A stretch of DNA of 64,000 bases from Candidatus Bathyarchaeota archaeon (GCA_963707955.1 OY970176.1:1248001-1312000), one strand, 5' to 3'. Numbered from the stretch's first letter, positions 12,265 to 27,921 are shown. The notes: generated from the letters alone by a model not told the origin. Numbers and translations: made by a program.

Positions 12265-15200
12265 TTATGGGTAGTGTTGTCCGAAGTTGGCGCAGGCGAT
12301 GATTATGTCGCTCATGTCGATTTTGCCGTTGCCGTTTATGTCGCAGTTTGGATTATAATTCGGCTGTCCGACTGTTGAACCAAACGCCAAGCAGAGGCTG
12401 ATTATGTCGCCCACGTCAACTCTGCCGTTTCCGTCAACGTCGCCTGGAATCGTTAAGATCACATTGCCGCCTGTGTAGTTGTTGTTTGAAATGTTCGTTT
12501 CGCCCGGAACAGGCCAGGCGTAGGCGCTTATGGTGTAGTTGCCGTAGGGATAGCCTGCAGTGTTCAAAACGAAGGTAATGTTTAACGAGTTTCCGCTTGA
12601 CAAGGTGACGTTCTGTGAGGAAGCAAAAGCCATGGTGACGTTTTCTGAAGCGATAAAGAGGCTGGCATAGACTGTTACGTTGAACGTTTCTGGGAGATCG
12701 CCCAAGTCTGCTGCTGTAACGGTTACGTTCAGGCCGTCGCCTTGGCCGACCACGCACTTCGATGAATTAACATTGGTGACGGCTACGTCATGGATATGCA
12801 CGGTGACAGACGCGTTGTCAGACGTTGCCTGCACTCCGACGCTGTCGGTGACATTCACATAGACTGTGTGGAAACCTACAGATGTAGGAGTGAAAACCCA
12901 TGTTGCGTTTGTGGCGCCAGAAACGGGGACGCCGTCTAGGTACCACTGATAAGAGTAGGGAGACGTACCGCCCGTGATGCTCGACGTGAAGAGTTGAGAC
13001 TGACCAACAACCACACCGATTAAAGTGGGCGAAACACTGACCAAGGGCGAAGGGTTAACGATGACGGTAGTGACGTTGGATTCTGCCATAGACCCAACAC
13101 CGTCCGTTACGTTAACGTAGACGTTGTAGAAGCCAATAGAGATTGGCGTAAAGGTCCACGTGAAACCCGTGGCACCCTGCACTTCTGAGCCGTTCAAGTA
13201 CCATTGGTATGTGAACGACGAAGTGCCGCCAGAGACTATGGAAGTGAATAAGTGCGATTGGCCCGTGTCTACAGCAACAGAGGTGGGCGTTATGCTGATT
13301 GAAAGTGGCTCGTTCACTGTCACTGGAACACTATTGGACATTGCAACGGCGCTCACTGAGTCTGTGACGTTTAAGTAGACCGTGTAAGAGCCTGCGGATG
13401 CTGGCGTAAACGTCCACGTAATACTCGTGGCACCTGAGACGGGAGAACCATTCAAATACCATTGATACGAGTAGGCAGACGTGCCACCTGAGACAGTTGA
13501 GGTGAAGAGTTGAGACTGACCGAAATCCATCGTGACTGAAGGCGGCGAGACAATGACCGAAAGCTGCCTATTCACAGTAATTAGAACAGTATTGGAAGTT
13601 GCCGCCTGGCCCGATGCGTCAGTGACATTCAAGTAAACCGTGAAAGAACCTGAAGAAGAAGGCATAAACGTCCATGCACTGCCAGTAGCACCTGAGACTT
13701 GGGTGCCGTTCAGGTACCACTGATAAGAGTAAGGCGACGTGCCACCTGACACGCCACAGGTGAACAGTTGAGACTGACCAAGATCCATCGTGATGGAAGG
13801 GGGCGAGATAACGACCGAAGGCTGCTTATTCACAGTGACACTCGCAAAAGTAAGGTCACTGAATCCGACGCTGTCAGTGACCTCGACGTAAACAGCATAG
13901 TAACCTGAGAGTGTAGGCGTGAACGTCCAAGTTGCGTTGGTGGCTCCAGGAACGACAGCACTGTTAAGAAGCCATTGGTACGTGTACGGTGAGATGCCTC
14001 CAGAAACTGTGGATACGAAGAGTTGAGACCCGCCGACATCCATAGTGATTGAAGCTGGCGAAACATTAACTGAGGGCCACGGATAAACATTGACGGAAGC
14101 GGTGCTAGATTCTGCTGTAAACCCAGCATTGTCGGTTACGTTAACGTAGATGCTGTAAAAGCCAGATGAACTCGGCGTAAAGGTCCAGCCGCTAAAAACG
14201 GCTCTTGAAACCGGTGTGCCATTCAAACACCATTGATAAGAGTATGCTAACGCACCTCCTGAAGCGACCGAATTGAATAACTGTGACTGGTCGACCTCCA
14301 AGGTTGCGGAGCTAGACGAAATGTTAACAGAAAGCGAATTAGCGCAGTAAGGATTCATCAAAGGATAATTGTCCACGTCGGCAGAACCAATCGTGTACGG
14401 CGTGTCCCCTATCCCGTCGCTTCCAATCAAGTTCTGGCTTGGGCCACACATTATGTCTTGACCGTTGTAGTCGCTCCAAAAGTTTCCGCCTGAAGGATAA
14501 CCGTTATCCCAGTAGTTTGCTGGCGAAGGATGCGGTTCATCCCACGCCACGTACGCGTTGAGCACGTTGCTCAAGAGGTTGTTGTGGAAAATGTAGTTTG
14601 ACCAACAATCATAAACGTAGACGCCGTACTCGTTTGAAGTCAAATTGTTGCCAACTACGTAATTGTAGTAGGAACAGTAGAGTACTACGCCGCCGAAGTT
14701 GGACGATACGGAGTTTGCCAAGCTGTTCGCGCTCACGTTGTTGTAGCATGAGTAGTAAAGCCAAACTCCCGCCCAAGTGTTCGCAGATACGTTGTTTCCA
14801 CTCAAGACGTTGTACTGCGAGCCCACTATGTAGACCCCGTAACTGTTGCCAGACAGGTTGGCTTCAAACACGCAGCAGCTCGAGCACCCTGACTCATAAA
14901 TCCCGAAAAAAAACGACCTTACCGACACGTTCCTAATCGTCACGTCGCTCAAGCCACTGAGGTAGATCCCGTTCGAGCCCGTGACCATTCCTCCCTGAAC
15001 CGTGTGTCCTCCTCCGTCCAAGACCGTGTTGTTTCTTTCGACCACGATTCCGTTGTAAGCTGGGTAGCTCACGTTGCCGGTGATTGTGTAAGTTTTACTA
15101 TCAGAAGTTACGATGGGAGCTCCAGACGGGGTGATAGAACCATCAGCGTTAATGTAAACCGTCGCAGCCTGTGCGCGCACCAGCCCAACGTTAAACGCCA

Positions 15201-15279
15201 ATGCCAACATGCTTGTTACGAGCAAAACCAGCATTACCCCGGAAACAGGCTTCCGCAAGAACCCGAACCCCCCCTCCAA
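12265..15279 (-). CDS. Secreted surface protein: NosD/PbH1 beta-helix, about six PKD/Ig-like repeats, CARDB-like domain, C-terminal dockerin-like domain
   Basis: Signal peptide; LSGNNVSAN repeats; WDNGYPSGGNFWSDY; about 86-aa repeats containing GG..PYSYQWYLNG; paired GDVDGNGRVD / DINGNGKID calcium loops. Confidence 0.88.
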   Translation of the reverse strand: MEGGFGFLRKPVSGVMLVLLVTSMLALAFNVGLVRAQAATVYINADGSITPSGAPIVTSDSKTYTITGNVSYPAYNGIVVERNNTVLDGGGHTVQGGMVTGSNGIYLSGLSDVTIRNVSVRSFFFGIYESGCSSCCVFEANLSGNSYGVYIVGSQYNVLSGNNVSANTWAGVWLYYSCYNNVSANSLANSVSSNFGGVVLYCSYYNYVVGNNLTSNEYGVYVYDCWSNYIFHNNLLSNVLNAYVAWDEPHPSPANYWDNGYPSGGNFWSDYNGQDIMCGPSQNLIGSDGIGDTPYTIGSADVDNYPLMNPYCANSLSVNISSSSATLEVDQSQLFNSVASGGALAYSYQWCLNGTPVSRAVFSGWTFTPSSSGFYSIYVNVTDNAGFTAESSTASVNVYPWPSVNVSPASITMDVGGSQLFVSTVSGGISPYTYQWLLNSAVVPGATNATWTFTPTLSGYYAVYVEVTDSVGFSDLTFASVTVNKQPSVVISPPSITMDLGQSQLFTCGVSGGTSPYSYQWYLNGTQVSGATGSAWTFMPSSSGSFTVYLNVTDASGQAATSNTVLITVNRQLSVIVSPPSVTMDFGQSQLFTSTVSGGTSAYSYQWYLNGSPVSGATSITWTFTPASAGSYTVYLNVTDSVSAVAMSNSVPVTVNEPLSISITPTSVAVDTGQSHLFTSIVSGGTSSFTYQWYLNGSEVQGATGFTWTFTPISIGFYNVYVNVTDGVGSMAESNVTTVIVNPSPLVSVSPTLIGVVVGQSQLFTSSITGGTSPYSYQWYLDGVPVSGATNATWVFTPTSVGFHTVYVNVTDSVGVQATSDNASVTVHIHDVAVTNVNSSKCVVGQGDGLNVTVTAADLGDLPETFNVTVYASLFIASENVTMAFASSQNVTLSSGNSLNITFVLNTAGYPYGNYTISAYAWPVPGETNISNNNYTGGNVILTIPGDVDGNGRVDVGDIISLCLAFGSTVGQPNYNPNCDINGNGKIDMSDIIIACANFGQHYP

Positions 15280-16998: not shown

Positions 16999-17021
16999 GA
17001 TACTGTCCACTTAATCGGGAT
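16999..17021 (+). repeat. Left terminal inverted repeat GATACTGTCCACTTAATCGGGAT
   Basis: Exact reverse complement of 23569-23591; resembles IS6-family ends (G.CACTGT). Confidence 0.93.
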
Positions 17022-17079
17022 AGGGTTCTGTCAAGTCTTCGGTTGATACGAGCCCTTGTAAAAAATCGGTTGACGAAGA

Positions 17080-17598
17080 TTAGCCTTCCGAGATATGTTT
17101 CTTTATTTTGTCCCTCATTACCCCTTTTAGCTTACTCAAACGGTCCGTAATTTCAATATTTGCTTGGTCTTCTGGAGGAAGGTCCGCGAACCACTCTTCA
17201 TACTCGTCTTCCTCACCTAGGTCGGGGGGTTCTCCATATATCTCAATTTGTTTCTCCGTAAGGAAGGTGTCAATGTCGTCTATTTCCTTTTTCAATTCCT
17301 CTCTCAGTTTTTCAGGGAGGAAGAGTCCAGTACTGCCATCCAGAAAAACAGTAACGGCATTTCGAAAATCGGGAAAACTCTTGTAACCCTGTTTTAATAA
17401 TTCATCGAGCTTTACTAGGGCATCTTTTCTGTCCTCATGATACAGTTGCATTCTTGTAATTGTCAGACTTAGTTCTCGTTGAGTTTTAAGGCTCTTTTCA
17501 GAAAAGTAATGCGCTATGATTTGTGTAACGATTGCTATTACAACTCCAGAAATCAGCGGGAAAATATACAGGCTGTAATCGGACAAAAGCATTCCCAA
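17080..17598 (-). CDS. Hypothetical protein with one N-terminal transmembrane helix and an acidic helical domain (transposon cargo)
   Basis: 172-aa ORF, hydrophobic N-terminal segment, co-oriented with the other cargo genes. Confidence 0.7.
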   Translation of the reverse strand: MGMLLSDYSLYIFPLISGVVIAIVTQIIAHYFSEKSLKTQRELSLTITRMQLYHEDRKDALVKLDELLKQGYKSFPDFRNAVTVFLDGSTGLFLPEKLREELKKEIDDIDTFLTEKQIEIYGEPPDLGEEDEYEEWFADLPPEDQANIEITDRLSKLKGVMRDKIKKHISEG

Positions 17599-17659
17599 AA
17601 AAGTATGACTATCGTTTGGATATAACCGTATTGTTGCCTCGATATTGTAAACTTGTTTC

Positions 17660-19033
17660 TCATGGTTGGTTTTGATTTTGGTTTCGCAGTAGTTCCTTCA
17701 CTGTGATTGTTTTGATCTCAATGTTATCGTGTAGTCCCGCTCTCGCGACTTCGCCAAAAGCACCCTTGCCGAAACTGAAGGCCACGATTGTTCCCTTCTT
17801 CGCATTTCTTCTCCTGATTGCAGTCTCAAAATTGTCAACCACGTTTCTACCAATATCATCCGACTGCTTAACCTGAATGGGATCGCCTTCAAAGGTAAAA
17901 CCATCAATGCCCATGTCTGAACTTTTCCTTTGTGACACTCTACCGAAAAGCCTCTGAACAACCCAATTCTGAAACTCGAACGCTGGCAGTTTTCTCAGAT
18001 CCTCTTCAGTCATAGGCATGCCCATGACACTGGGCGACACATGCAATTTCCTAAATCTCTTCTCCATAAGTTTGCATGCTGTTGGAGAAACGTCTATTCC
18101 TGCCCATTGCCTTCCAAACTTATGAGCTACTACGATAGCTGTGCCACATCCACAAAAAGGGTCGAGAACAATATCCATCGCATTAGAAGAAGTTTTGATG
18201 ATTCGTTCTAAGAGAAGTTCAGGCTTTTGTGTGGGGAAACCGAAACTCTCTCTAGAAGTTGAAACAGGGTTCACGTCATCCCATAAGTCTTGAAATGGAA
18301 CGCCTTTCATTTCGTCCAGATACCTCTTGTATCTGGGGACGTTGCCTTTCTTTGTCTGGACGATTCGACCTTCTTTGTACAGCTTCTCCATCGTCTCTTT
18401 GCTATATCGCCAGTATCTTGTTACGCCTAAGAACTCATATCTTGGGTTTCCTTTCGCTGCTCCACCAGGCCCATCTATTGCGGTGAGCTGGTATCTTCTC
18501 CCTGTTTCATGTTCTACGTGTCCGTAGAACTTATCTTTTGATTCCTCAGTGAAAGGCAAGTATTGCTGATTCCAAGTGTAGTCTTTAGATTTGGCATAGA
18601 ACAGTATAACATCATGTATTCTACCATAGTGTTTCGCTCCCTGTTTCGCGTCACTGTGCTTTGCAACCTGTCTTTTCCACACAATCTCGTTTACGAAGTT
18701 AGTCTCTCCGAATAGCCTGTCCATTTCATACTTCAAATAATGCGAAGCGTGCCAATCGCAATGAAGATACATCGAGCCAGTCTTTTTGAGAACTCGATAA
18801 CATTGAGTAAGCCTTTCAACCATCCAAGCAACATAATAGTCTAAACCGCCTTTCCATCTGTCCTCGAAAGCTCTAAGCTCATATCCGTCTCCCCAGATGA
18901 TTTCGTAACGTCTGTTGGAAAAGAAAGGCGGATCAGCATAAATCAAATCGACAGATTCGTTCGGAAACTTGCTCAAAACATCCTTGCAATCGCCACAATA
19001 GATTGTGTTAGGTCTGAAATATGGAATAGTCAT
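17660..19033 (-). CDS. N6-adenine/N4-cytosine DNA methyltransferase (beta class) fused to a C-terminal Mrr-like restriction endonuclease domain
   Basis: LIYADPPF precedes PTQKP and VLDPFCGCGT; C-terminal FEFQNWV...DMGIDG...IQVKQ (D..QxK) nuclease motif. Confidence 0.9.
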   Translation of the reverse strand: MTIPYFRPNTIYCGDCKDVLSKFPNESVDLIYADPPFFSNRRYEIIWGDGYELRAFEDRWKGGLDYYVAWMVERLTQCYRVLKKTGSMYLHCDWHASHYLKYEMDRLFGETNFVNEIVWKRQVAKHSDAKQGAKHYGRIHDVILFYAKSKDYTWNQQYLPFTEESKDKFYGHVEHETGRRYQLTAIDGPGGAAKGNPRYEFLGVTRYWRYSKETMEKLYKEGRIVQTKKGNVPRYKRYLDEMKGVPFQDLWDDVNPVSTSRESFGFPTQKPELLLERIIKTSSNAMDIVLDPFCGCGTAIVVAHKFGRQWAGIDVSPTACKLMEKRFRKLHVSPSVMGMPMTEEDLRKLPAFEFQNWVVQRLFGRVSQRKSSDMGIDGFTFEGDPIQVKQSDDIGRNVVDNFETAIRRRNAKKGTIVAFSFGKGAFGEVARAGLHDNIEIKTITVKELLRNQNQNQP

Positions 19034-19095
19034 CTAGTTACCTTGAACTAGAATTAGTGCAACATCCTATTAACTCGTTTGCTGTTGTTTAATGG

Positions 19096-19290
19096 TTATT
19101 TTGCGAACTGTATGTCTCGATACTTGGTTTTTCCCACGTTTTTTTCGAGGTTTGCTTTAATCTGTTTTTCCCATTCGTCCTCTGTCAAGATTCCCTTTCG
19201 TTCAAGAACTTCAACGAGACTGGAAAGCATCATATCGAGACTATCAAGTTCCTCAGCAAGTTCTCTTGTTAGATTCTTTTTCTTGCTCAT
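19096..19290 (-). CDS. Small hypothetical protein, 64 aa
   Basis: ATGA overlap with the upstream CopG-like ORF; LVEVLERKGILTEDEW helical pattern. Confidence 0.7.
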   Translation of the reverse strand: MSKKKNLTRELAEELDSLDMMLSSLVEVLERKGILTEDEWEKQIKANLEKNVGKTKYRDIQFAK

Positions 19291-19442
19291 TGCTTTCCCT
19301 TCGTAGGTAAATATCCTTTCTCAGATAGAAAAGCTATGACTATAGTTCTTACTATCTCTGAATCACTTTCGCCGAAAGTGCCTTTCAGATTGTCCACGAT
19401 TTTCTTTATCTCATCTGGAAGACTTAACAAGATTCTTTTCAT
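19287..19442 (-). CDS. CopG/ribbon-helix-helix-like regulator, 51 aa, not in the ORF track
   Basis: Hand translation MKRILLSLPDEIKKIVDNLKGTFGESDSEIVRTIVIAFLSEKGYLPTKGKQ; ATGA overlaps at both ends. Confidence 0.8.
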   Translation of the reverse strand: MKRILLSLPDEIKKIVDNLKGTFGESDSEIVRTIVIAFLSEKGYLPTKGKQ

Positions 19443-20332
19443 TTAGCTACCACCTCTATCGGTTTTTCGTTCACTGTTCTATTCTCTCCACTCGTTGCCT
19501 TGAATTTGGTTGCTTCTTTTACTATTGTGTGCCAATCGTTCTTCATAGTTAATCCAGAGGCCTGAGCAGGAGTCATTCCAAGAGTCTGATGCTTTCGTAC
19601 ATAGTCATAGTGAACTGCCCAACCTTCTAGTAGTGTCCTTACTGTGTCTTCTCCTTTCAAACCTCGCGTTGGCCTCAAACGGTCTTTCAACGTGCCATGC
19701 AGTCTTTCAACAGCATTCTGATTATGAATCGCCCTTATTCCCACTCTTCTGATTAGCTCGGGTCTGCCTTCTTTCTTCATTGTATAGAAGACCTTGTTGA
19801 ATCCATCTATGTAAGCTGGCAAGCCATCACAGTAAATTGAAACTGGCTTTCTCTTAGCTACTCTGATGCTTTTCTCGAAAAGTGCTATCGCGTCTTCGGT
19901 TGTTCTTGAACCTGACAAGTGACCTGTAACCAGAAACTTTGTCTGATCATCGATGATTTCCCAGAACCACTTCTGAACACCCTTACACTTGATCGCGGTT
20001 TCATCAACGTGATAAATGCCTAGAAGATGTGGTGTTAAGGTTTCTACATACTCAGCGCACAGTTTTGAATATTTCATGATCCATTTCCAGATTGCAGACT
20101 TGCCTATCTGAATGCCAAAAATCTTTTGAAGCTGATTCTGAACCTTTCTGATGCTAAGTCCTTCGTAATACATGTCAATTGCCGTGGAAATGATTCGGGA
20201 CTCCACACGCATTTTTGGAAAGTCCGAACCTTCAACAAACTTGTGTCCACAAGAGCGACAAACGAACTGTTGCTTGCCCTTCACTTTGCCATCCTTAACG
20301 ACTTTCTCTGAGCCACAATACTTGCATGGCAT
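19439..20332 (-). CDS. IS6/IS240-like DDE transposase with an N-terminal zinc ribbon and HTH
   Basis: CKYCGS...CRSCG zinc ribbon; AIWKWI HTH; HVDET, YCDGLPAY and NAVERLHGTLKDR catalytic segments; probable start MPCKYC at 20332. Confidence 0.92.
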   Translation of the reverse strand: MPCKYCGSEKVVKDGKVKGKQQFVCRSCGHKFVEGSDFPKMRVESRIISTAIDMYYEGLSIRKVQNQLQKIFGIQIGKSAIWKWIMKYSKLCAEYVETLTPHLLGIYHVDETAIKCKGVQKWFWEIIDDQTKFLVTGHLSGSRTTEDAIALFEKSIRVAKRKPVSIYCDGLPAYIDGFNKVFYTMKKEGRPELIRRVGIRAIHNQNAVERLHGTLKDRLRPTRGLKGEDTVRTLLEGWAVHYDYVRKHQTLGMTPAQASGLTMKNDWHTIVKEATKFKATSGENRTVNEKPIEVVAK

Positions 20333-20341
20333 CGTTATATC

Positions 20342-20377
20342 ACCAGAGTCATATACAGTATATAACTGGTTTATAAG
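20342..20377 (-). promoter_or_regulatory. Putative transposase promoter (TATA box) with a palindromic operator
   Basis: CTTATAAA on the minus strand at 20370-20377; GTCATATAC-A-GTATATAAC near-palindrome at 20348-20366 between the TATA box and the ATG; similar half-site GTCATAGAC at 20408. Confidence 0.5.
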
Positions 20378-20436
20378 CTTTGCTCTTTTTGATTCTGTCG
20401 AGCCCGTGTCATAGACTGTCTTGAGCAAGTGAGGTG

Positions 20437-21675
20437 CTACACTACGTGTTGAAGTATTATTTCGGTATTTTGTTTCCTTTCAAGAAGCTGTGCTTTATCG
20501 TTTCTGTTCTTTAACGGATAGACACTGAAAGCTTCCTCAAAACTGTGGGCTTTTTTGAATTTCTTCACTAACCCCTTGTATGGTGGAAACGCTCCACCGT
20601 ACCCAAGTATTCGTCTTGCCTTGCCGATCAATTTCAAGTGGTAATCAGTCCATAATGGAGATATAAAACAGTTCTTCTCCAACGCATTCAGTGGTTCATA
20701 CCTCATTGGATATGACACACAGCCTAAATCTGCGATGTGCTTTATTCTTTCAAAAAATGTCGCGGGTATATCGCTATGATATTTTTTGTTGTAGAAATTG
20801 TATAGAGTATATATGAAGATTTTTCGTCTTCTTATACCGCTTTTCGAAAGAATATCTATAGCATTAGTGAGTGCTCTCTTCTCACCAATGTCGTCAAAAG
20901 CAGTTCGAATTAGGGGTGTTTTTAAATCAGCGATCATACGGGCTTTTTCATCATCAACCAGACGAGCATCAACGCCCTGATTGAAATCAACAGGCAATCC
21001 TATGTCCAGTAGTTCATTGAGTATTTTTTTCCAGTTTGACATTGCAAAGAAATTATTGTCCCATAAGATAATCCGCTTGTAATCTGGATAGATATAACGC
21101 TCAAGATCTTCCACAACTCCGTGGATCTTTCCTTCCAACTTTGGAACAATGCAATAAGGGCAACTTCGAATGCATCCTCTTGAAGTGAATAGGATTGTGC
21201 TGTCCCATTTTTCCCATTCCTTTACTTCTTTTAAGAGGTCATATGCTGGCAGGTAGCCATCTGCCTCCTTACAAAGACCGATATTAATATCTATGAATGG
21301 AAAAAAAGATCTAAGTCTACGCGACATTAACGAAGCATATATACCTCCAACCCGTATTTTTGCACCACTAAATTTGGTGTGATAGAATTTTATGGCTTCG
21401 TGGACTGGTTTCCAAGCATAAGTGAATAACGACGTGATTTCGATGCGATCTGGACTAAACTTCAAGTCTTCTTGAATATCACGCACGAGTTTTACTTGGT
21501 TCCCTCTGGAACGATGATATGAAGCAAGCTTCAATAAGCCTAATGGAGGGAATTTCGTGTAATATGCAGGTTCAACAAGCAGAACTTTCATAGGATAGGT
21601 AGTGCTTACGTTATTCTTAAAGTTTCCTATAAAATTGGAAAAAGGATCCAAATCCTTGAAACCGGAGGATCCCAT
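20437..21675 (-). CDS. Radical SAM protein with a B12-binding-like N-terminal domain (transposon cargo)
   Basis: TSRGCIRSCPYC (CxxxCxxC); PPLGLLKLASY, VGGIYASL, LWDNNFFA, DFNQGVDARL; alternative start MKVLLVEP near 21591. Confidence 0.88.
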   Translation of the reverse strand: MGSSGFKDLDPFSNFIGNFKNNVSTTYPMKVLLVEPAYYTKFPPLGLLKLASYHRSRGNQVKLVRDIQEDLKFSPDRIEITSLFTYAWKPVHEAIKFYHTKFSGAKIRVGGIYASLMSRRLRSFFPFIDINIGLCKEADGYLPAYDLLKEVKEWEKWDSTILFTSRGCIRSCPYCIVPKLEGKIHGVVEDLERYIYPDYKRIILWDNNFFAMSNWKKILNELLDIGLPVDFNQGVDARLVDDEKARMIADLKTPLIRTAFDDIGEKRALTNAIDILSKSGIRRRKIFIYTLYNFYNKKYHSDIPATFFERIKHIADLGCVSYPMRYEPLNALEKNCFISPLWTDYHLKLIGKARRILGYGGAFPPYKGLVKKFKKAHSFEEAFSVYPLKNRNDKAQLLERKQNTEIILQHVV

Positions 21676-23435
21676 TAGGTCTTGAGCTTAGACTTCTCTA
21701 TTAATCGGAGAATGAGATCTTGTGTCATATGAAAGTCTGTTAAGATGTCGATTTTTTCTTCTTTAGTCATCAATTCATAGAATGCGAAAGAAGGTTTTCC
21801 TTTTTCATGCTTTGAGGTGTTGACAAACAACTCATGGAGTGCATCAATCATAACTCCGAAGAGACGATCGCGATATTCCTCTGACAAAAGAAGCTTTGGA
21901 TTATCACCCTTTTGTACTTCTTTCCAGCCATAAGCTTTTTTGGATAAGTCGCATATTGAATCGAGTGTTGTCAAGCCTGTTTTTCGTTGAAGAAGTTCTT
22001 TCACTGGGTTCATTGCATCAATATCAAATTCCGTCTTTCCCTTCTTTGTGGTCTTCTCAAGATGCTTCTTCAAGTCAGGATGGGATGTTTTGATAAATTC
22101 ATTGAATCTATCCGTTTTTTCTTTGATGATGTCTGTGGGCTGTTCCTTTATTTTGTCTTGAACCGTTTTTTCCAGTGTTTTCAGAAAGGTTCTATTGGTC
22201 GCGGATTTCTTATTGATGACTTCTTTCATTCCTTGAAGTGCTTGTTCCGTTGGAAAACTTCGCTTTCGCTGCAACTTCTTTTTCAGATGTACGATTCTCT
22301 CATGTGCTGGCTTCACCTCACCAATCTCTATTTGTTTCTTTATTTGCTCGATTGGCCTGGTCACGATATTGTCTGATTGGTATTGATTCATCAATTGCAG
22401 TTGACCCACAAATTCGCCCACTTGTTGGTAGAACGGTTCGATTATCTCATTGTTTGCTTCGAAATTATTGCGGGGTGCATTTTCCTTTAGTGCGTCAAGG
22501 ATTATGTGAATTTCCCCATATTGCCATTGATTATAGTTTCCTGGATGCAGGTTTGAGACAAGGTTTTCATCTCCAATGGTGAACCCTTTTTTCTTGAAAC
22601 AGATTCCCCTATTTGGCGGATCCAGTTTACGGTTGGTTTTGCTTGAAAGAACCCATCCATATGCAACAGTTTCATTTTTGACAATGAATTTCTTCTCTAT
22701 GATTTTGTTGAAGAAAACGTTGTCGTTGTCTGGTGGACGAAAGATTTGTTGTTTCTCAAAAAAGATAGGCGTTTCTTGGATTTTGACATCATTTGCTGAA
22801 AGTTTCTTGGCAATCTCTTTTCCTAAAGTGAATTTCCCTGTATCGAAAGGAGCAGGAACAGTAGTGGAAAGATATTCTCTTACGGCTTTTTCTGTGAAAA
22901 TTGAACGTTGGTTCGGCAAAATGTCCTCAAGCCGAATCGTTGTGAATTGTGAGTTTTCAATGGATTCATCGCCACCTGTTTCTAACTCTTCTATATCTCC
23001 TGTCACGTCAGTTAACACTCTCGCAGCTGAAATATTGAGATTGTATTGTTGACGCAATTTATCAGCATCAATTTGGACTCGAAGTTTTGGGTGATTTTGT
23101 TTCTTAGTAATTATCACGATTCTTCGACAAGCAGGAATCCCGCTCCAAATTCCAATTCCTCTCCAACCAATCGCGCCAGGAGGTTTCTCGCTTATGCCGA
23201 GATAAAGTGCTTCCTCAAGTTTCCCCTTGTCCATTCCACACCCATTATCTTCGATAACCAAAACAGTTTGATTCTCAAAATATACATCGATTCTATTTGC
23301 CCCTGAATCAATACAATTCTGAACATACTCGCGCAGACAATTCAGATTTCCATCATAAAGCCCCGCTGTAATTGCCTCAATGAGTTTGGCCCCAAAAGAT
23401 TCATCGGTAAATTTAACCAAGGAAAACTCCCTCAA
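21675..23435 (-). CDS. GHKL (Hsp90/MORC-like, HATPase_c_3) ATPase with a helical C-terminal region (transposon cargo)
   Basis: LREYVQNCIDS N-box, IEDNGCGM G1 box, IGWRGIGIWSG G2 box; TAATG overlap with the radical SAM gene. Confidence 0.88.
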   Translation of the reverse strand: MREFSLVKFTDESFGAKLIEAITAGLYDGNLNCLREYVQNCIDSGANRIDVYFENQTVLVIEDNGCGMDKGKLEEALYLGISEKPPGAIGWRGIGIWSGIPACRRIVIITKKQNHPKLRVQIDADKLRQQYNLNISAARVLTDVTGDIEELETGGDESIENSQFTTIRLEDILPNQRSIFTEKAVREYLSTTVPAPFDTGKFTLGKEIAKKLSANDVKIQETPIFFEKQQIFRPPDNDNVFFNKIIEKKFIVKNETVAYGWVLSSKTNRKLDPPNRGICFKKKGFTIGDENLVSNLHPGNYNQWQYGEIHIILDALKENAPRNNFEANNEIIEPFYQQVGEFVGQLQLMNQYQSDNIVTRPIEQIKKQIEIGEVKPAHERIVHLKKKLQRKRSFPTEQALQGMKEVINKKSATNRTFLKTLEKTVQDKIKEQPTDIIKEKTDRFNEFIKTSHPDLKKHLEKTTKKGKTEFDIDAMNPVKELLQRKTGLTTLDSICDLSKKAYGWKEVQKGDNPKLLLSEEYRDRLFGVMIDALHELFVNTSKHEKGKPSFAFYELMTKEEKIDILTDFHMTQDLILRLIEKSKLKT

Positions 23436-23568
23436 TTAATCCTAATATGAACTGTTAGCCATTTAAATTCTTGTGTTATATCTTGCTTGAGTTTTTCCAT
23501 GACTTTTTGAGTTTAACGCCTTTTTCTTCAAACCAAAGCAACACATGGCTTTAGTACTTCACTATTCC

Positions 23569-23591
23569 ATCCCGATTAAGTGGACAGTATC
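23569..23591 (-). repeat. Right terminal inverted repeat ATCCCGATTAAGTGGACAGTATC
   Basis: Exact reverse complement of 16999-17021. Confidence 0.93.
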
Positions 23592-24316
23592 AGGTCCGAG
23601 GGGACTTGAAACCCACGGGGTGAATTTGTACTGTTTCCCCTTTTTTCTGTCGCCGTGTACATGCTTTAGTGTTTATGGCTCTGTCCTTATCATATTGGAG
23701 AAGCCATGACAGGCCTAACCTCTCAACCCAACCTTCTTGAAGATTTGCAGCGATCTAGAACTGTGAGTTCAAGCAGCCCCATCACTCTGGAACTGAATAT
23801 GTACCGCTTCCTCAATCATTTTCCCATTTTTGTAATTTAACCGAAGCACGCAGATGCTTTTGTTCTCCAGTCTCGCTGGGTTCCGGTTGCCGGTTTCTCC
23901 CGGGCTACCAAAAGCGCAAGCGTGAATTTATACTGAATTTCTTCCTTTTTTGGAAGCCTAGCCTTGAAGTGAGCTGGCCCCTATGCTCGGCAGGGGCTAG
24001 AGCATCAAGAAGATCTTGAGTCTCTTGCGCACCATACGTATCAACACTCATTTCTAATCACCATAAAGCTGTAATAGTCGCAAGAAACGAAAATTAGAAC
24101 AAGCGCGCTTTTTCAGAGCTGGGGACTTTCATCCTCACGAGAATTGGGACTCCCTACGATGAACGTCGCAACAAGGATGCGAGCCTGAACAATCCAAAAA
24201 GTGAAGGAAATACTGCGATAGAAAGGCTTAAGTCTGACCGGAGAAAAGCAGAACTTGAGGCGAGGATCATTCGACATTTCCGCGCTGGTTACATTCTGAT
24301 TCTGTTAACGCCATTC

Positions 24317-25314: not shown

Positions 25315-27921
25315 ATGCAAAAGAAAAGCTTTTTGCGCTTAGCAACAATTTGTTTTGCAGTAATGCTTTTAGTTGTCTTCATGCCCGCGCCTAAGGTTTC
25401 AGCTTCTGGAGCTTCTGGAGGCCCGACACTGTGGTGTAACCCCGAGCCCCTATTTGAACCCACGTACTTGGACTATTCGGCAGGGTATGCATTGCTCGCA
25501 GACCCTCCGACGTATTTGAATCTAGCTGCGTCGGCGTTACAGGTCACAGTGTCCTTCGCTGAGGCGGCTAACTTGGTAGGATACCTCGGAAAGGGGAATT
25601 ATTTGGGAGCTGGGATGACCACGACGAGCTTCGACCGCATCAATACAGGCGGGTGGTATGCTATAGATTACGGCTGGAGTTACGTCGTGTACATTAATGA
25701 CAGCGGCGGACCCTATATCAACATGGAGTGCTGGCAACTGGGGGAATACACTGGACAAAGCACGTGTTTGCTCACTGAAGGGTACTATAACCCTTCAATT
25801 TCCATCTCTGATGACATTACCTTAACTATGCAATGGGACGGTGCATCTGTTATCTTCTCCGTTCAGGACGGTTCTTTGAATGAAATCGTATATACTTTTA
25901 CGACAAGCTCACGTATGGCGCAATACTTTGAGGTGGGTTCTATTGGAAACGGCATTCCAGTGGTGGGCGGCCTGTTACCCACTGTCAAATACTTTCAGTT
26001 TGTGGGCGCTTGGAGCCCTTGCGCAGACCCGGGAACGAACCTCGATTGGACTACTTACCTATCTAATCCGCAGTTTATGCTTACGGGTGAAACTACGTGG
26101 ACGGAAGTCTGGATCGCATATACGACAACAGGTACCGATTCGGCACTCGACAACGGGTGGAGTTGGGGGTGGATACCAGGCTTTGACGATATCTATGTCA
26201 CGGGTGGTTATGATACGGATATGTTCGGAGTCATCAACGACCTCTATGTTGGATTCACGCACTATGCAAACCAGCAAATATATTCTGGCAATGGTGCTTG
26301 TTTGTGGGACATCCCGCCGGTCAACCTTCAGATTTCCATCGGCTCTGGTTCTGGTTCAATCAATCCTTCCGCAGGAAGCTATTCCTACAATTTTAGCACT
26401 TGCGTAACGGTCAGCGCGAATCCTGCCACCGGTTATTGGTTTAATCACTGGCTCCTTGTACTTAACGGCGAAGGCAACCTACCAACAGAGTCGTGGGAGT
26501 GTGCATCCCTTGACTGGTCGTTTTGTATGAACGCTTCCTATTCGCTGACCGCATACTTCACTCCTAATCCAACTCTGACTATTTCAGTTTCAGGTTCAGG
26601 TTCAACCACCCCGTCAGGAACGTTTTCCTGTTGCCACGGCTCTACCGTTACGGTTACGGAAATTCCATCGAGCGGTTATGCTTTTGCCTATTGGTTGCTC
26701 GACTCGACAACGTACTACTATACCACTTCGATTACCGTGACGATGGGGCACCATAGCCATTCGCTGACAGCATACTTCGTCGTTTATTATCCAACGTTGA
26801 ACATTTCAGCTTCGAGCGGCGGAACGACAATACCCATCCCAGGACAGTACTCCGAAAGCTACGGCAGTAGCGTGAACGTCACGGCTAACCCATATCCAAA
26901 TTACGCTTTTCAGTATTGGTTGCTTGATCAGGTAGTCAATATCAACAATCCAATAACTGTGGATATGACGGCTGACCATTCGCTGACCGCATACTTCAAC
27001 TACGTAGGTGGCGGAGGCGGGGGAGACGGGTGCCCGTACGTTTACGATTGGAACGGCTCGGCTTATGTGAAGGATAACAATATTCTGCCAGCGTCCGAAA
27101 CGGGCAACGGCACCGACACCAAAGACTACTGCCTGCTTCAACTGCAGCTCGTTCCAGTTTTCACCGCCAAAAAAGAGTCTGTGTACTCTCTGCAGATAGG
27201 CGAGTTTGAAAGCGAGATCGATTACATCGACCAGGTGAAACTCATGGCGGTCGACCATTCGCAGGGCACAAACGTGGCCGTGACGCCTGAAGGCCAGATC
27301 CTCACGTACACGAACCCGGCCAGCCCAATCTCGGCCATCGACAACAACGGCGTCAGCCAGCTGAGCGAGATAGCGACGATGAACGGCAACGTCAGCGACC
27401 CCTCCACGTACTTCCAGGGCAACACGGGAGACTGGCTGCTGCTGGACCTTGGCAAGGTCACAGGGCCATACGCCAACCTCATCCTAAGAGACGACATGAA
27501 TTGCGAGAAGATATGCTTGGACGTGCAGGTGCTCAACGCATCTGGCGACTGGCAGACGGTTGAAACGCTGCATCCCCGAGCCTACTGGAGCATTGAAGCC
27601 GCTAACATGGCTGCCTACTTGCCCAAAACGGGCGACTTCAAAGTCAGACTCTACTGGACGACGCCCCACAGGCTCGACTACGTGGGCCTAGACACCTCAC
27701 CGCCAGCTCCAGTGCAAGTGAACTCTGCACCCCCAACACTGGCCATCCACTCAACCATGGGAGACGTGACCCAAAAGCTGCTGTACGACGACGAACAGTG
27801 CGTGAAACTCGTCAACGGCCAGCACATAACACTCTGGTTCACACTGCCCAGCCAAGCGCAAGGCACAACAAGAAGCTTCATCCTATACACAGACGGCTAC
27901 TACTACACCATAACACCATAG
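25315..27921 (+). CDS. Large secreted protein with InlB-B/Flg_new-like repeats and a C-terminal CPYVYDWNG domain
   Basis: Signal peptide; three repeats of GSG.T.P..G.Y.Y...VTV.A.P..GY.F.YWLLD...SLTAYF; GGGGGDGCPYVYDWNG. Confidence 0.85.
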   Translation: MQKKSFLRLATICFAVMLLVVFMPAPKVSASGASGGPTLWCNPEPLFEPTYLDYSAGYALLADPPTYLNLAASALQVTVSFAEAANLVGYLGKGNYLGAGMTTTSFDRINTGGWYAIDYGWSYVVYINDSGGPYINMECWQLGEYTGQSTCLLTEGYYNPSISISDDITLTMQWDGASVIFSVQDGSLNEIVYTFTTSSRMAQYFEVGSIGNGIPVVGGLLPTVKYFQFVGAWSPCADPGTNLDWTTYLSNPQFMLTGETTWTEVWIAYTTTGTDSALDNGWSWGWIPGFDDIYVTGGYDTDMFGVINDLYVGFTHYANQQIYSGNGACLWDIPPVNLQISIGSGSGSINPSAGSYSYNFSTCVTVSANPATGYWFNHWLLVLNGEGNLPTESWECASLDWSFCMNASYSLTAYFTPNPTLTISVSGSGSTTPSGTFSCCHGSTVTVTEIPSSGYAFAYWLLDSTTYYYTTSITVTMGHHSHSLTAYFVVYYPTLNISASSGGTTIPIPGQYSESYGSSVNVTANPYPNYAFQYWLLDQVVNINNPITVDMTADHSLTAYFNYVGGGGGGDGCPYVYDWNGSAYVKDNNILPASETGNGTDTKDYCLLQLQLVPVFTAKKESVYSLQIGEFESEIDYIDQVKLMAVDHSQGTNVAVTPEGQILTYTNPASPISAIDNNGVSQLSEIATMNGNVSDPSTYFQGNTGDWLLLDLGKVTGPYANLILRDDMNCEKICLDVQVLNASGDWQTVETLHPRAYWSIEAANMAAYLPKTGDFKVRLYWTTPHRLDYVGLDTSPPAPVQVNSAPPTLAIHSTMGDVTQKLLYDDEQCVKLVNGQHITLWFTLPSQAQGTTRSFILYTDGYYYTITP

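Follow-up and report, generated by a model that had tools for sequence, protein, structure and literature searches.

Introduction

Prokaryotic MORC and paraMORC proteins, ATPases with GHKL and S5 domains, belong to mobile operons resembling restriction-modification systems (Iyer, Abhiman & Aravind 2008, PMC2292703). An ATPase of MORC-like type is encoded next to a radical S-adenosylmethionine (SAM) protein at positions 20437..23435 of a 64,000-nt stretch of DNA from Candidatus Bathyarchaeota archaeon (GCA_963707955.1 OY970176.1:1248001-1312000), hereafter the window. This gene pair, apparently a conserved, mobile and unnamed module, is the subject of the present analysis. As far as the accessible text of PMC2292703 describes them, paraMORC proteins have a GHKL fold with all ATP-binding motifs followed by a transducer-like domain, occur sporadically across bacteria and archaea, which suggests lateral transfer, and lie in neighbourhoods rich in helicases and restriction-modification genes; the ATPases considered here share all of these properties. 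In contrast to paraMORC, a radical SAM enzyme takes the place of a helicase or nuclease as partner, and the term 'radical SAM' was not found in the accessible text of that paper. The window ATPase differs also in its C-terminal half, which is helical, carries a KHE.G motif of its own and gave no informative fold match.

The core of the Dpd system consists of the DNA transglycosylase DpdA, the DGQHR/ParB-like ATPase DpdB and SNF2-type DpdE helicases, and the transglycosylase needs its ParB-like ATPase. Like Dpd, the pair ties a DNA-modifying enzyme (putative here) to a DNA-dependent nucleoside triphosphatase (NTPase); both are mobile and patchy, and relatives of the radical SAM protein adjoin DGQHR/DpdB-like proteins and SNF2 proteins that match DpdE models. 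Unlike Dpd, the enzyme is not a homologue of tRNA-guanine transglycosylase, and the loci examined showed no genes for 7-deazaguanine synthesis.

The combination of a Rossmann-type N-terminal domain and a radical SAM barrel is shared with the class B radical SAM enzymes (MgmA, TsrM, TokK, CysS and OxsB), with AprD4 and with MiaB and RimO. Compared to the class B enzymes, the members of this family are shorter (~365-385 aa), are only 12-17% identical to them and occur in a context of DNA and genetic conflict rather than in antibiotic, cofactor or tRNA pathways.

Among radical SAM enzymes that act on DNA, gp53 of phage M6 is an isomerase in thymidine hypermodification and, according to the accessible text of PMC8989533, the first such enzyme known to install a DNA modification. 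The likeness is that the enzyme is phage-encoded, gp53 acting on a base already in DNA; the difference, as far as that text goes, is that gp53 resembles spore photoproduct lyase, has no B12-like domain and works in a 5-hydroxymethyldeoxyuridine (5-hmdU) kinase/transferase pathway, one that none of the loci seen here contains. Viperins and Ophion (10.1101/2025.09.30.679545, in the part accessible) are, like this family, radical SAM enzymes in a defence-island setting. They differ from the window protein, which has an N-terminal Rossmann-type domain and no match to the pVip models of PADLOC, and also in their partners: PHP and phosphoribosyltransferase (PRTase) proteins for Ophion, kinases for viperins, a MORC-like ATPase in the window.

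The ATPase and radical SAM genes form a conserved pair

Two intact open reading frames (ORFs) lie on the minus strand. One, 21675..23435, encodes 586 aa from its TTG; the other, 20437..21675, encodes 412 aa from its ATG. That both genes are real had been read correctly from the DNA. With the conserved start of the second gene (see below), the features are:

21675..23435, minus strand: ATPase gene, GHKL (MORC/MutL/Hsp90-type), with a middle domain resembling a transducer and a C-terminal half made up of helices
20437..21591, minus strand: radical SAM gene, 384 aa, Rossmann-type (B12-domain-like) N-terminal domain and radical SAM barrel, PHROG 9298
21592..21674, minus strand: spacer between the pair, 83 nt, conserved, with half-sites able to pair, a T-run and TTTTATAGG
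23436..23568, minus strand: region upstream of the ATPase gene, within the transposon; an A/T-rich box, TTTAAAT, precedes the TTG start by ~45 nt

In a scan from the radical SAM side, with one genome per species, 212 loci with a relative were found and the best 80 kept. An ATPase profile (E<=1e-5) matched a neighbour at 38 of these best 80 of 212 loci. At the 18 closest loci (at least 51% identity), the ATPase gene was directly upstream on the same strand in 14. The most distant clade (~30% identity; radical SAM proteins of 530-560 aa) showed the reverse order, with a GHKL protein of ~500 aa encoded directly downstream.

The converse scan, of metagenomes from the ATPase side, gave 195 relatives, of which 80 were kept; 15 of their loci end too early to judge. 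In the remaining 65 evaluable loci, the radical SAM gene was directly downstream in 45 and within 3 kb in 16. One of the four apparent misses (L151) proved to have a radical SAM gene when searched with tblastn, which brings the total within 3 kb to 62/65. Of the three others, L171 holds an ATPase fragment of 236 aa, and at L195 and L202 the downstream sequence is limited to 1615 and 871 nt. Wherever, among the 65, the ATPase was full-length and downstream sequence ample, the radical SAM gene was present. Distant ATPases (28-32% identity) belong to a trio of ATPase, ~335-aa protein and radical SAM gene; the middle protein has no Pfam family and a weak NCBIfam hint (PP_RS20740). Clearly, the pairing is far beyond chance in both directions, and the check on gene neighbourhoods proposed in the sequence-only reading came out in favour of a true association.

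In a FastTree phylogeny of 95 family members, the window protein falls in a well-supported clade of 20, of which 14 have the ATPase as sole partner. Elsewhere in the tree (with long-branch warnings for four viral members, L092, L102, L111 and L088) partner types are interleaved, so partners were swapped many times. Nested inside the paired clade are orphan copies that have lost the ATPase, two from Methanolobus (L009, L010) and one from a Methanosarcinales metagenome-assembled genome (MAG; L013). The orphan copies are under purifying selection, with ratios of nonsynonymous to synonymous substitution (dN/dS) of 0.11 and 0.13, as compared to 0.09 for a paired couple. Two loci in MAGs labelled Gammaproteobacteria and Nitrospira (L063 and L064) had identical gene coordinates, hidden Markov model (HMM) scores and radical SAM protein, which suggests that a single contig was binned or deposited in duplicate.

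The pairing appears not to correspond to a named defence system, as had been supposed. PADLOC-DB 2.0 contains no family that matches the radical SAM protein at E<=0.01, and its sole match to the ATPase was a weak one, to the N-terminus of MzaB. Identity with MzaB was rejected: the match (E 1.2e-8) covers residues 16-115 only, the NCBIfam MzaB model scored 22.5 bits against a cut-off of 850, and none of the six window proteins scanned was another Mza component. In PHROGs, PHROG 9298 carries no functional annotation beyond 'radical SAM domain protein'. No description of the pairing was found in the literature, supplementary tables and subscription journals being outside the scope of the search; in the accessible parts of the DNA phosphorothioate reappraisal, archaeal dark-matter, Tiamat and EVE-domain papers, 'radical SAM' concerns other matters only.

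The first gene encodes a MORC-like ATPase

The three Bergerat motifs are E31/N35/D38 (I), D58xGxG62 (II) and G85WRGIG90 (III), which are invariant or almost so in 22 homologues, and Pfam HATPase_c_3 matched the protein with E 6.4e-13 (49.3 bits versus a cut-off of 25). The assignment to the GHKL ATPases, first made from the motifs E..N..D, DNGCG and GWRGIG, is therefore secure. The protein is conserved over its full length among homologues.

A structural model of the ATPase (predicted local distance difference test, pLDDT, 85.2) matched GRP94 (Z 20.3), MORC3 (18.5), SMCHD1 (17.8) and MutL (16.6) over residues ~5-400; the ATPase modules of MORC2 and type II topoisomerases matched as well, with Z of 14-20 overall. 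Because the alignments to MORC3, MORC2, SMCHD1, MutL and GRP94 span ~5-350/400 (Z 16-20), they include a transducer (S5-like) domain after the GHKL domain. The C-terminal half is all-helical, with an invariant KH in the KHE.G motif and an invariant Arg; for residues ~346-581, searched within the full-length model, only short helical fold matches were obtained (Z <= 8.8). No nuclease domain was recognised in the ATPase.

The second gene encodes a radical SAM protein with a Rossmann-type domain

The cysteines of the CxxxCxxC motif, C140, C144 and C147 (counted from Met29 of the 412-aa ORF), are invariant in 22 sequences, in agreement with the initial reading of a radical SAM motif, and the protein is conserved along its whole length in homologues. 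In the window protein, Pfam PF04055 (Radical_SAM) scored 19.7 bits, under the gathering cut-off of 29.5; some homologues pass it in precomputed annotations. NCBIfam models were below every cut-off. PHROG phrog_9298 ('radical SAM domain protein') matched over the whole profile with E 2e-63.

The AlphaFold model (pLDDT 79.9) shows a Rossmann-type domain of residues 1-~110 followed by the barrel. Foldseek gave a probability of 1.00 to MgmA, MiaB and TsrM. The closest structural neighbours were AprD4 (Z 22.7, 330 residues aligned), MgmA (21.2), MiaB (20.0), TsrM (18.6) and RimO (18.1), followed by OxsB (17.1) and CysS and TokK (15 each); overall, matches had Z of 15-23 over 307-340 residues at 12-17% identity. 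These neighbours, together with the lack of a pVip match, confirm that the protein is not viperin-like. A profile search of the sequences of solved structures returned nothing below E 0.025.

The label 'B12-type', given to the protein on its sequence, holds in part. On its own, the N-terminal domain can be aligned with corrinoid-binding domains (Z ~10-11), and homologues show sub-threshold (27 bits vs 32.1) or precomputed hits of PF02310; the window protein itself had no PF02310 match at E<=0.01, and the domain matches MiaB/RimO and AprD4 as well as it does the class B enzymes. Judged from the model, binding of cobalamin is possible. A MiaB-type auxiliary cluster is unlikely, since the 22-sequence alignment shows no conserved Cys in the N-terminal domain.

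Five family members contain inteins with LAGLIDADG or HNH homing endonucleases. The break is at about residue 145-150, beside CxxxCxxC, in P0284, P0305 and P0341, and at ~220-235 in P0323 and P0364.

The radical SAM gene starts downstream of the overlap

The TAA stop codon of the ATPase gene and the first ATG of the 412-aa ORF have one base in common (TAATG), so the overlap noticed at the outset does exist. The gene itself, though, begins elsewhere. Each of the 21 homologues aligned with the window sequence starts at the equivalent of Met29, 'MKVLLVEP', 84 nt downstream of that ATG, which gives a gene of 384 aa; the 83-nt spacer is kept as non-coding DNA in five relatives (66-82% protein identity); and contigs of three sequencing runs have one extra base in the T-run of the spacer, behind 21638, so that the upstream ATG is no longer in frame. 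Translational coupling of the two genes fails as a consequence. The T-run difference itself (one of the three runs is possibly the source sample) may be a homopolymer error of the assembly, at a non-coding site. For the ATPase, the protein database calls a TTG five codons after the first, giving 581 aa.

In the spacer there are two GGATCC half-sites able to pair (21672-21667 and 21649-21644), then the T-run, and then a TATA-like box, TTTTATAGG, at 21634-21626, ~40 nt before the radical SAM ATG. The spacer may thus combine a possible terminator or attenuator with a promoter, and its conservation suggests that the radical SAM gene is under a promoter of its own. The TTTAAAT box ahead of the ATPase TTG is likewise a possible promoter.

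Relatives of the radical SAM protein have other DNA-directed partners and fusions

A profile search of 1.84 billion representatives yielded 3739 hits at E<=1e-3, 1790 at <=1e-10 and 415 clusters at <=1e-30. The family is present in archaea, bacteria and their viruses, and is rare and patchy. Its neighbours were clustered and then scanned against family libraries. In other clades, recurrent partners are a NurA-like protein with a HerA-like ATPase, sometimes together with a type IIG restriction-modification enzyme; ParB_N with a 505-aa protein; a DGQHR (DndB/DpdB-like) protein (113.8 bits versus 58.85; E 3e-16 to DpdB); and a SNF2 helicase encoded along with a 145-aa protein and two weakly ParB-like proteins of ~340 aa, usually in the company of the GHKL ATPase. 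Partner clusters c1, c4, c8 and c12 matched no Pfam family, and NCBIfam gave a weak ParB-like hint for c1 (E 0.0036). The feature common to all partners is a DNA-dependent NTPase.

Fusions were sought in 28 long proteins taken from the 150 matches listed. In P0277 (777 aa, from a Thermodesulfovibrionales MAG and named DNA cytosine-5 methyltransferase) and in P0390, a C5 DNA_methylase domain precedes the radical SAM domain; in P0275 the radical SAM domain is joined to a protein related to the ~340-aa ParB-like c1 partner. A further search with P0277 gave no additional fusion among the 120 hits listed.

Lone copies occur in phage replication modules

Defence systems often ride on prophages. A scan of viral contigs gave 28 loci with a radical SAM relative, about half of which carry the multi-gene systems. 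At six viral loci the radical SAM copy has none of the profiled partner genes and lies amid phage replication, recombination and modification genes. Its neighbours there encode DNA polymerase, clamp loader, primase, RecE-like, Sak4-like and RusA proteins and nucleoside deoxyribosyltransferase, as well as DNA methyltransferases and ParB-methyltransferase fusions. One lone copy (L088) is beside genes for the large terminase subunit and head proteins; at another phage locus (L102), a C5 methyltransferase gene extends over the radical SAM start.

Deposited phage genomes added 17 records with a relative. In Marinitoga camini virus 1 (45% identity) it adjoins genes annotated as HerA and Rad50/Mre11-associated exonuclease; in Clostridium phage phiCT453B it follows RusA; in a Bacteroides LoVEphage it is two genes from Dam; and in a Methanomassiliicoccales virus it is upstream of terminase. 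On the viral contig L112 (6474-10968), a radical SAM gene lies between two ORFs that match positions 476-827 and 835-1238 of phrog_17; it looks as if the gene had been inserted into a split phage DNA polymerase gene.

Many pairs lie among defence or mobile genes

At 15 loci of the window type, 114 neighbours within 7 kb were scanned. Eight of the loci had strong PADLOC defence hits, and integrases or a transposase were present at three more, so that defence or mobile genes surround the pair at 11/15, a point in favour of the initial interpretation. The hits are listed by locus.

L005: PbeA/PbeC and NsnB/AriA-like (PADLOC)
L011: DrmA/DrmB (PADLOC)
L002: PDC-S01 (PADLOC)
L018: type II restriction-modification, Vsr, TIR protein and IetS (PADLOC)
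L026: GmrSD/HEC-05 (PADLOC)
L027: type IIG (PADLOC)
L015: PD-Lambda-5_B/methyltransferase (PADLOC)
L014: weak dGTPase match, HD-domain phosphohydrolase downstream (counted among the eight PADLOC loci)
L007 and L012: integrases
L001: IS6-type transposase

PADLOC matches judged generic were set aside: mad3 to ABC ATPases, Csa3/CasR to helix-turn-helix regulators, mad2 to an ordinary methyltransferase, pVip to unrelated radical SAM genes and C3a214 to an amylase.

The pair is cargo of an IS6-type transposon

In the window, the pair is part of an element of 6.6 kb. Perfect 23-nt inverted repeats enclose five genes, transcribed on the minus strand in the order 586-aa, 412-aa, 329-aa, 457-aa and 172-aa ORFs. 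Besides the pair, the features are:

16999..17021, no strand: left terminal inverted repeat, 23 nt, 100% complementary to 23569-23591; contigs of sequencing runs X1-X3 span the junction
17080..17598, minus strand: cargo ORF, 172 aa, with an N-terminal hydrophobic stretch (from the ORF list)
17660..19033, minus strand: N6_N4-type DNA methyltransferase fused to a Mrr-like nuclease domain, 457 aa (Pfam, PADLOC)
19439..20428, minus strand: IS6-type DDE transposase, 329 aa, with an N-terminal zinc ribbon (Pfam, NCBIfam)
23569..23591, no strand: right terminal inverted repeat, 23 nt, perfect complement of the left repeat; contigs of X1 and X2 span the junction

The 23-nt repeats have just two copies in the single-contig genome of 2.35 Mb (97% complete), and GC content is 0.39-0.42 within the element as compared to ~0.50 outside. 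The transposase matched Pfam DDE_Tnp_IS240 with E 3.5e-20 (73 bits versus a cut-off of 27) and NCBIfam transpos_IS6 with E 5e-35 (121.1 bits, slightly below the cut-off of 125). For the 457-aa fusion, E was 5.3e-46 for Pfam N6_N4_Mtase, 5.3e-5 for Mrr_cat (23.7 bits, cut-off 21) and 2.1e-64 for PADLOC MTase_II. The placing of both genes in a transposon, along with a DNA methyltransferase-nuclease fusion, was thus correct. The 172-aa ORF matched no Pfam, PADLOC, NCBIfam or PHROG family and had no relative in any retrieved locus.

Paralogues of the transposase occur elsewhere in the same genome (70% and 35% identity). Relatives with 44-52% identity adjoin the gene pair at L001, L130, L131 and L134, the only retrieved pair-bearing loci picked out by tblastn with the window transposase. 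No target-site duplication was found as a direct repeat in the 20 nt on either side of the element. As to an empty site, no contig from four runs joins across 16999-23591, and no flank-to-flank join was found in 30 relatives; in-silico excision creates a 297-codon stop-to-stop frame over the junction on the minus strand, with no homologue to confirm it.

DNA matching the pair was absent from all 30 relatives, ten of which belong to the same genus. The radical SAM profile (E<=1e-20) found 3/301 sampled genomes of the phylum, that of the window included, and the other two had distant matches only (1e-51 and 1e-21). Being transposon-borne, absent from relatives and so infrequent in the phylum, the pair is a rare, acquired cargo.

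Several other observations concern the element and its surroundings. The same genome holds another methyltransferase-Mrr gene at ~993,300-997,200 (G000:C1; L086, L087), with 44-58% identity in the parts seen, which adjoins an IS6-type transposase broken by in-frame TAG and TGA codons; the ATPase/radical SAM pair is missing there. The methyltransferase-Mrr gene may be a usual cargo of this transposon family. Just inside the left repeat, a segment of ~50 nt (17024-17074) has a 90-94% match to same-genus genomes (G001, G003 and G007), which suggests an insertion-sequence end common to the genus. Just outside the right repeat (23601-23668), two stretches of ~32 nt recur on unrelated contigs of the same metagenome runs; this is a short dispersed repeat in which ARAGORN found no tRNA. 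The island is flanked by genes for large secreted proteins with repeated modules of ~75-90 aa, 12265-15279 on the minus and 25315-27921 on the plus strand: one has a beta-helix, PKD-like repeats and a dockerin-like end, the other is repeat-rich and 868 aa long. Their repeat DNA matches many sites in related genomes.

Discussion

We tentatively favour the reading that the pair is a mobile DNA-directed module in which an ATPase assists a radical SAM enzyme that would modify DNA. The MORC/MutL-like ATPase would bind and clamp DNA in an ATP-dependent manner and present it to the radical SAM enzyme, which would use a radical derived from [4Fe-4S] and SAM, and perhaps cobalamin, for a covalent change to a DNA base, most likely at pyrimidine C5 or a 5-methyl position. 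The mark would distinguish or protect the carrier DNA, like that of the methyltransferase in a restriction-modification system; phages would protect their own DNA with lone copies of the enzyme, and an IS6-type transposon would have brought the module, along with the methyltransferase-Mrr fusion, into the genome of the window. This reading draws on the pairing itself, on the ParB/DGQHR, SNF2, HerA-NurA and type IIG partners, on the phage modules and on the methyltransferase fusions. The lone phage copies, the orphans under selection and the lack of loci with a full-length ATPase alone where downstream sequence is ample argue that the enzyme is harmless and useful alone, as a methyltransferase is.

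Several observations weigh against modification of DNA. The fold is equally close to enzymes with RNA and protein substrates (MiaB/RimO) and to one with a small-molecule substrate (AprD4). In the two-gene cassette there is no recognisable nuclease that could be the restricting partner, and four of the 15 pair loci (L003, L004, L006 and L008) have housekeeping neighbours or generic hits only. All fusion clusters looked up are singletons; P0329 and P0360 match just the C-terminal portion of the methylase profile, after the radical SAM domain, and the methyltransferase fusions could be gene-calling artefacts. Moreover, the genome of the window, a 97%-complete single contig, has no PF00145 match and so no C5 DNA methyltransferase; 5-methylcytosine made by such an enzyme is therefore not the substrate here, and the C5-methyltransferase fusions may say little about the window clade.

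Two further points of this kind are those on which a defence effector would be built: one enzyme is swapped among several NTPase partners, a hallmark of sensor/effector defence, and OxsB (Z 17.1), with a fold able to make an antiviral nucleoside, is among the structural neighbours. OxsB is B12-dependent and makes oxetanocin A. The ATPase (or HerA-NurA, SNF2 or ParB-like proteins) would then sense invading DNA and activate a radical SAM effector that damages nucleic acid by hydrogen abstraction or, in the manner of viperin or OxsB, makes an antiviral nucleotide analogue. Defence-island neighbourhoods at 8/15 loci, the HD-domain phosphohydrolase downstream at L014 and the precedents of viperins and Ophion (10.1101/2025.09.30.679545, in the part accessible) fit this explanation. 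Yet lone copies in phage replication modules, beside DNA methyltransferases, would be odd for an antiviral effector, and partnerless copies are kept by purifying selection; the fusions join a DNA methyltransferase and not nucleotide kinases or phosphatases, and PADLOC pVip does not match. We regard a defence effector as a serious contender, if an unlikely one. The sequence-only reading had offered base modification and an antiviral nucleotide side by side: the link to DNA is upheld by the phage modules, fusions and partners, and the antiviral nucleotide fits less well.

It is improbable, in our judgement, that the enzyme acts on RNA or protein, like MiaB/RimO or MgmA, with the Hsp90/MORC-like ATPase as a chaperone or substrate loader and the DNA-related neighbours as the usual company of mobile islands. 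MiaB, RimO and MgmA do rank high among the structural neighbours (Z 18-21), the ATPase resembles GRP94/Hsp90 no less than MORC or MutL, and several pairs lie amid housekeeping genes; but the enzyme has no TRAM or other RNA-binding domain and no conserved N-terminal Cys for an auxiliary cluster, its operon partners recur and are DNA enzymes (ParB/DGQHR, SNF2, HerA-NurA, type IIG), the fusions are to C5 DNA methyltransferase, and the family is rare and patchy, with no conserved precursor peptide or target gene nearby. A selfish or maintenance function of the transposon, such as target choice or post-segregational killing, with no role between host and virus, would account for the position of the pair inside the terminal repeats and for the related IS6-type transposases that flank it at L001, L130, L131 and L134. 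We hold it to be highly improbable, given that most pair loci have no such transposase nearby (four did, by tblastn), that the family occurs also in phages and in transposase-free multi-gene systems, and that a second methyltransferase-Mrr and IS6-type unit in the same genome does without the pair.

The DNA-modification reading can be extended to the whole family, in a form that is bolder and rather doubtful: its members would install a hitherto unknown, oxygen-independent modification of DNA bases, for example by radical C-alkylation at or next to pyrimidine C5, delivered by interchangeable NTPase partners (MORC-like ATPase, HerA-NurA, ParB/DGQHR or SNF2), and it would be used by phages against restriction and by cells and transposons, in archaea and bacteria, as the marking half of modification-dependent immunity of a new class.

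For a radical SAM enzyme that writes on DNA there is a single precedent according to the accessible text of PMC8989533, the unrelated gp53. If the family modifies DNA, it would bring a new chemistry to the natural DNA modifications and explain a recurrent, unnamed gene set in the defence islands of anaerobes, and the pair would provide a defined two-gene unit with a natural orphan-enzyme control. Should the bolder form hold as well, radical modification of DNA would be the anaerobic counterpart of TET/JBP-type hypermodification.

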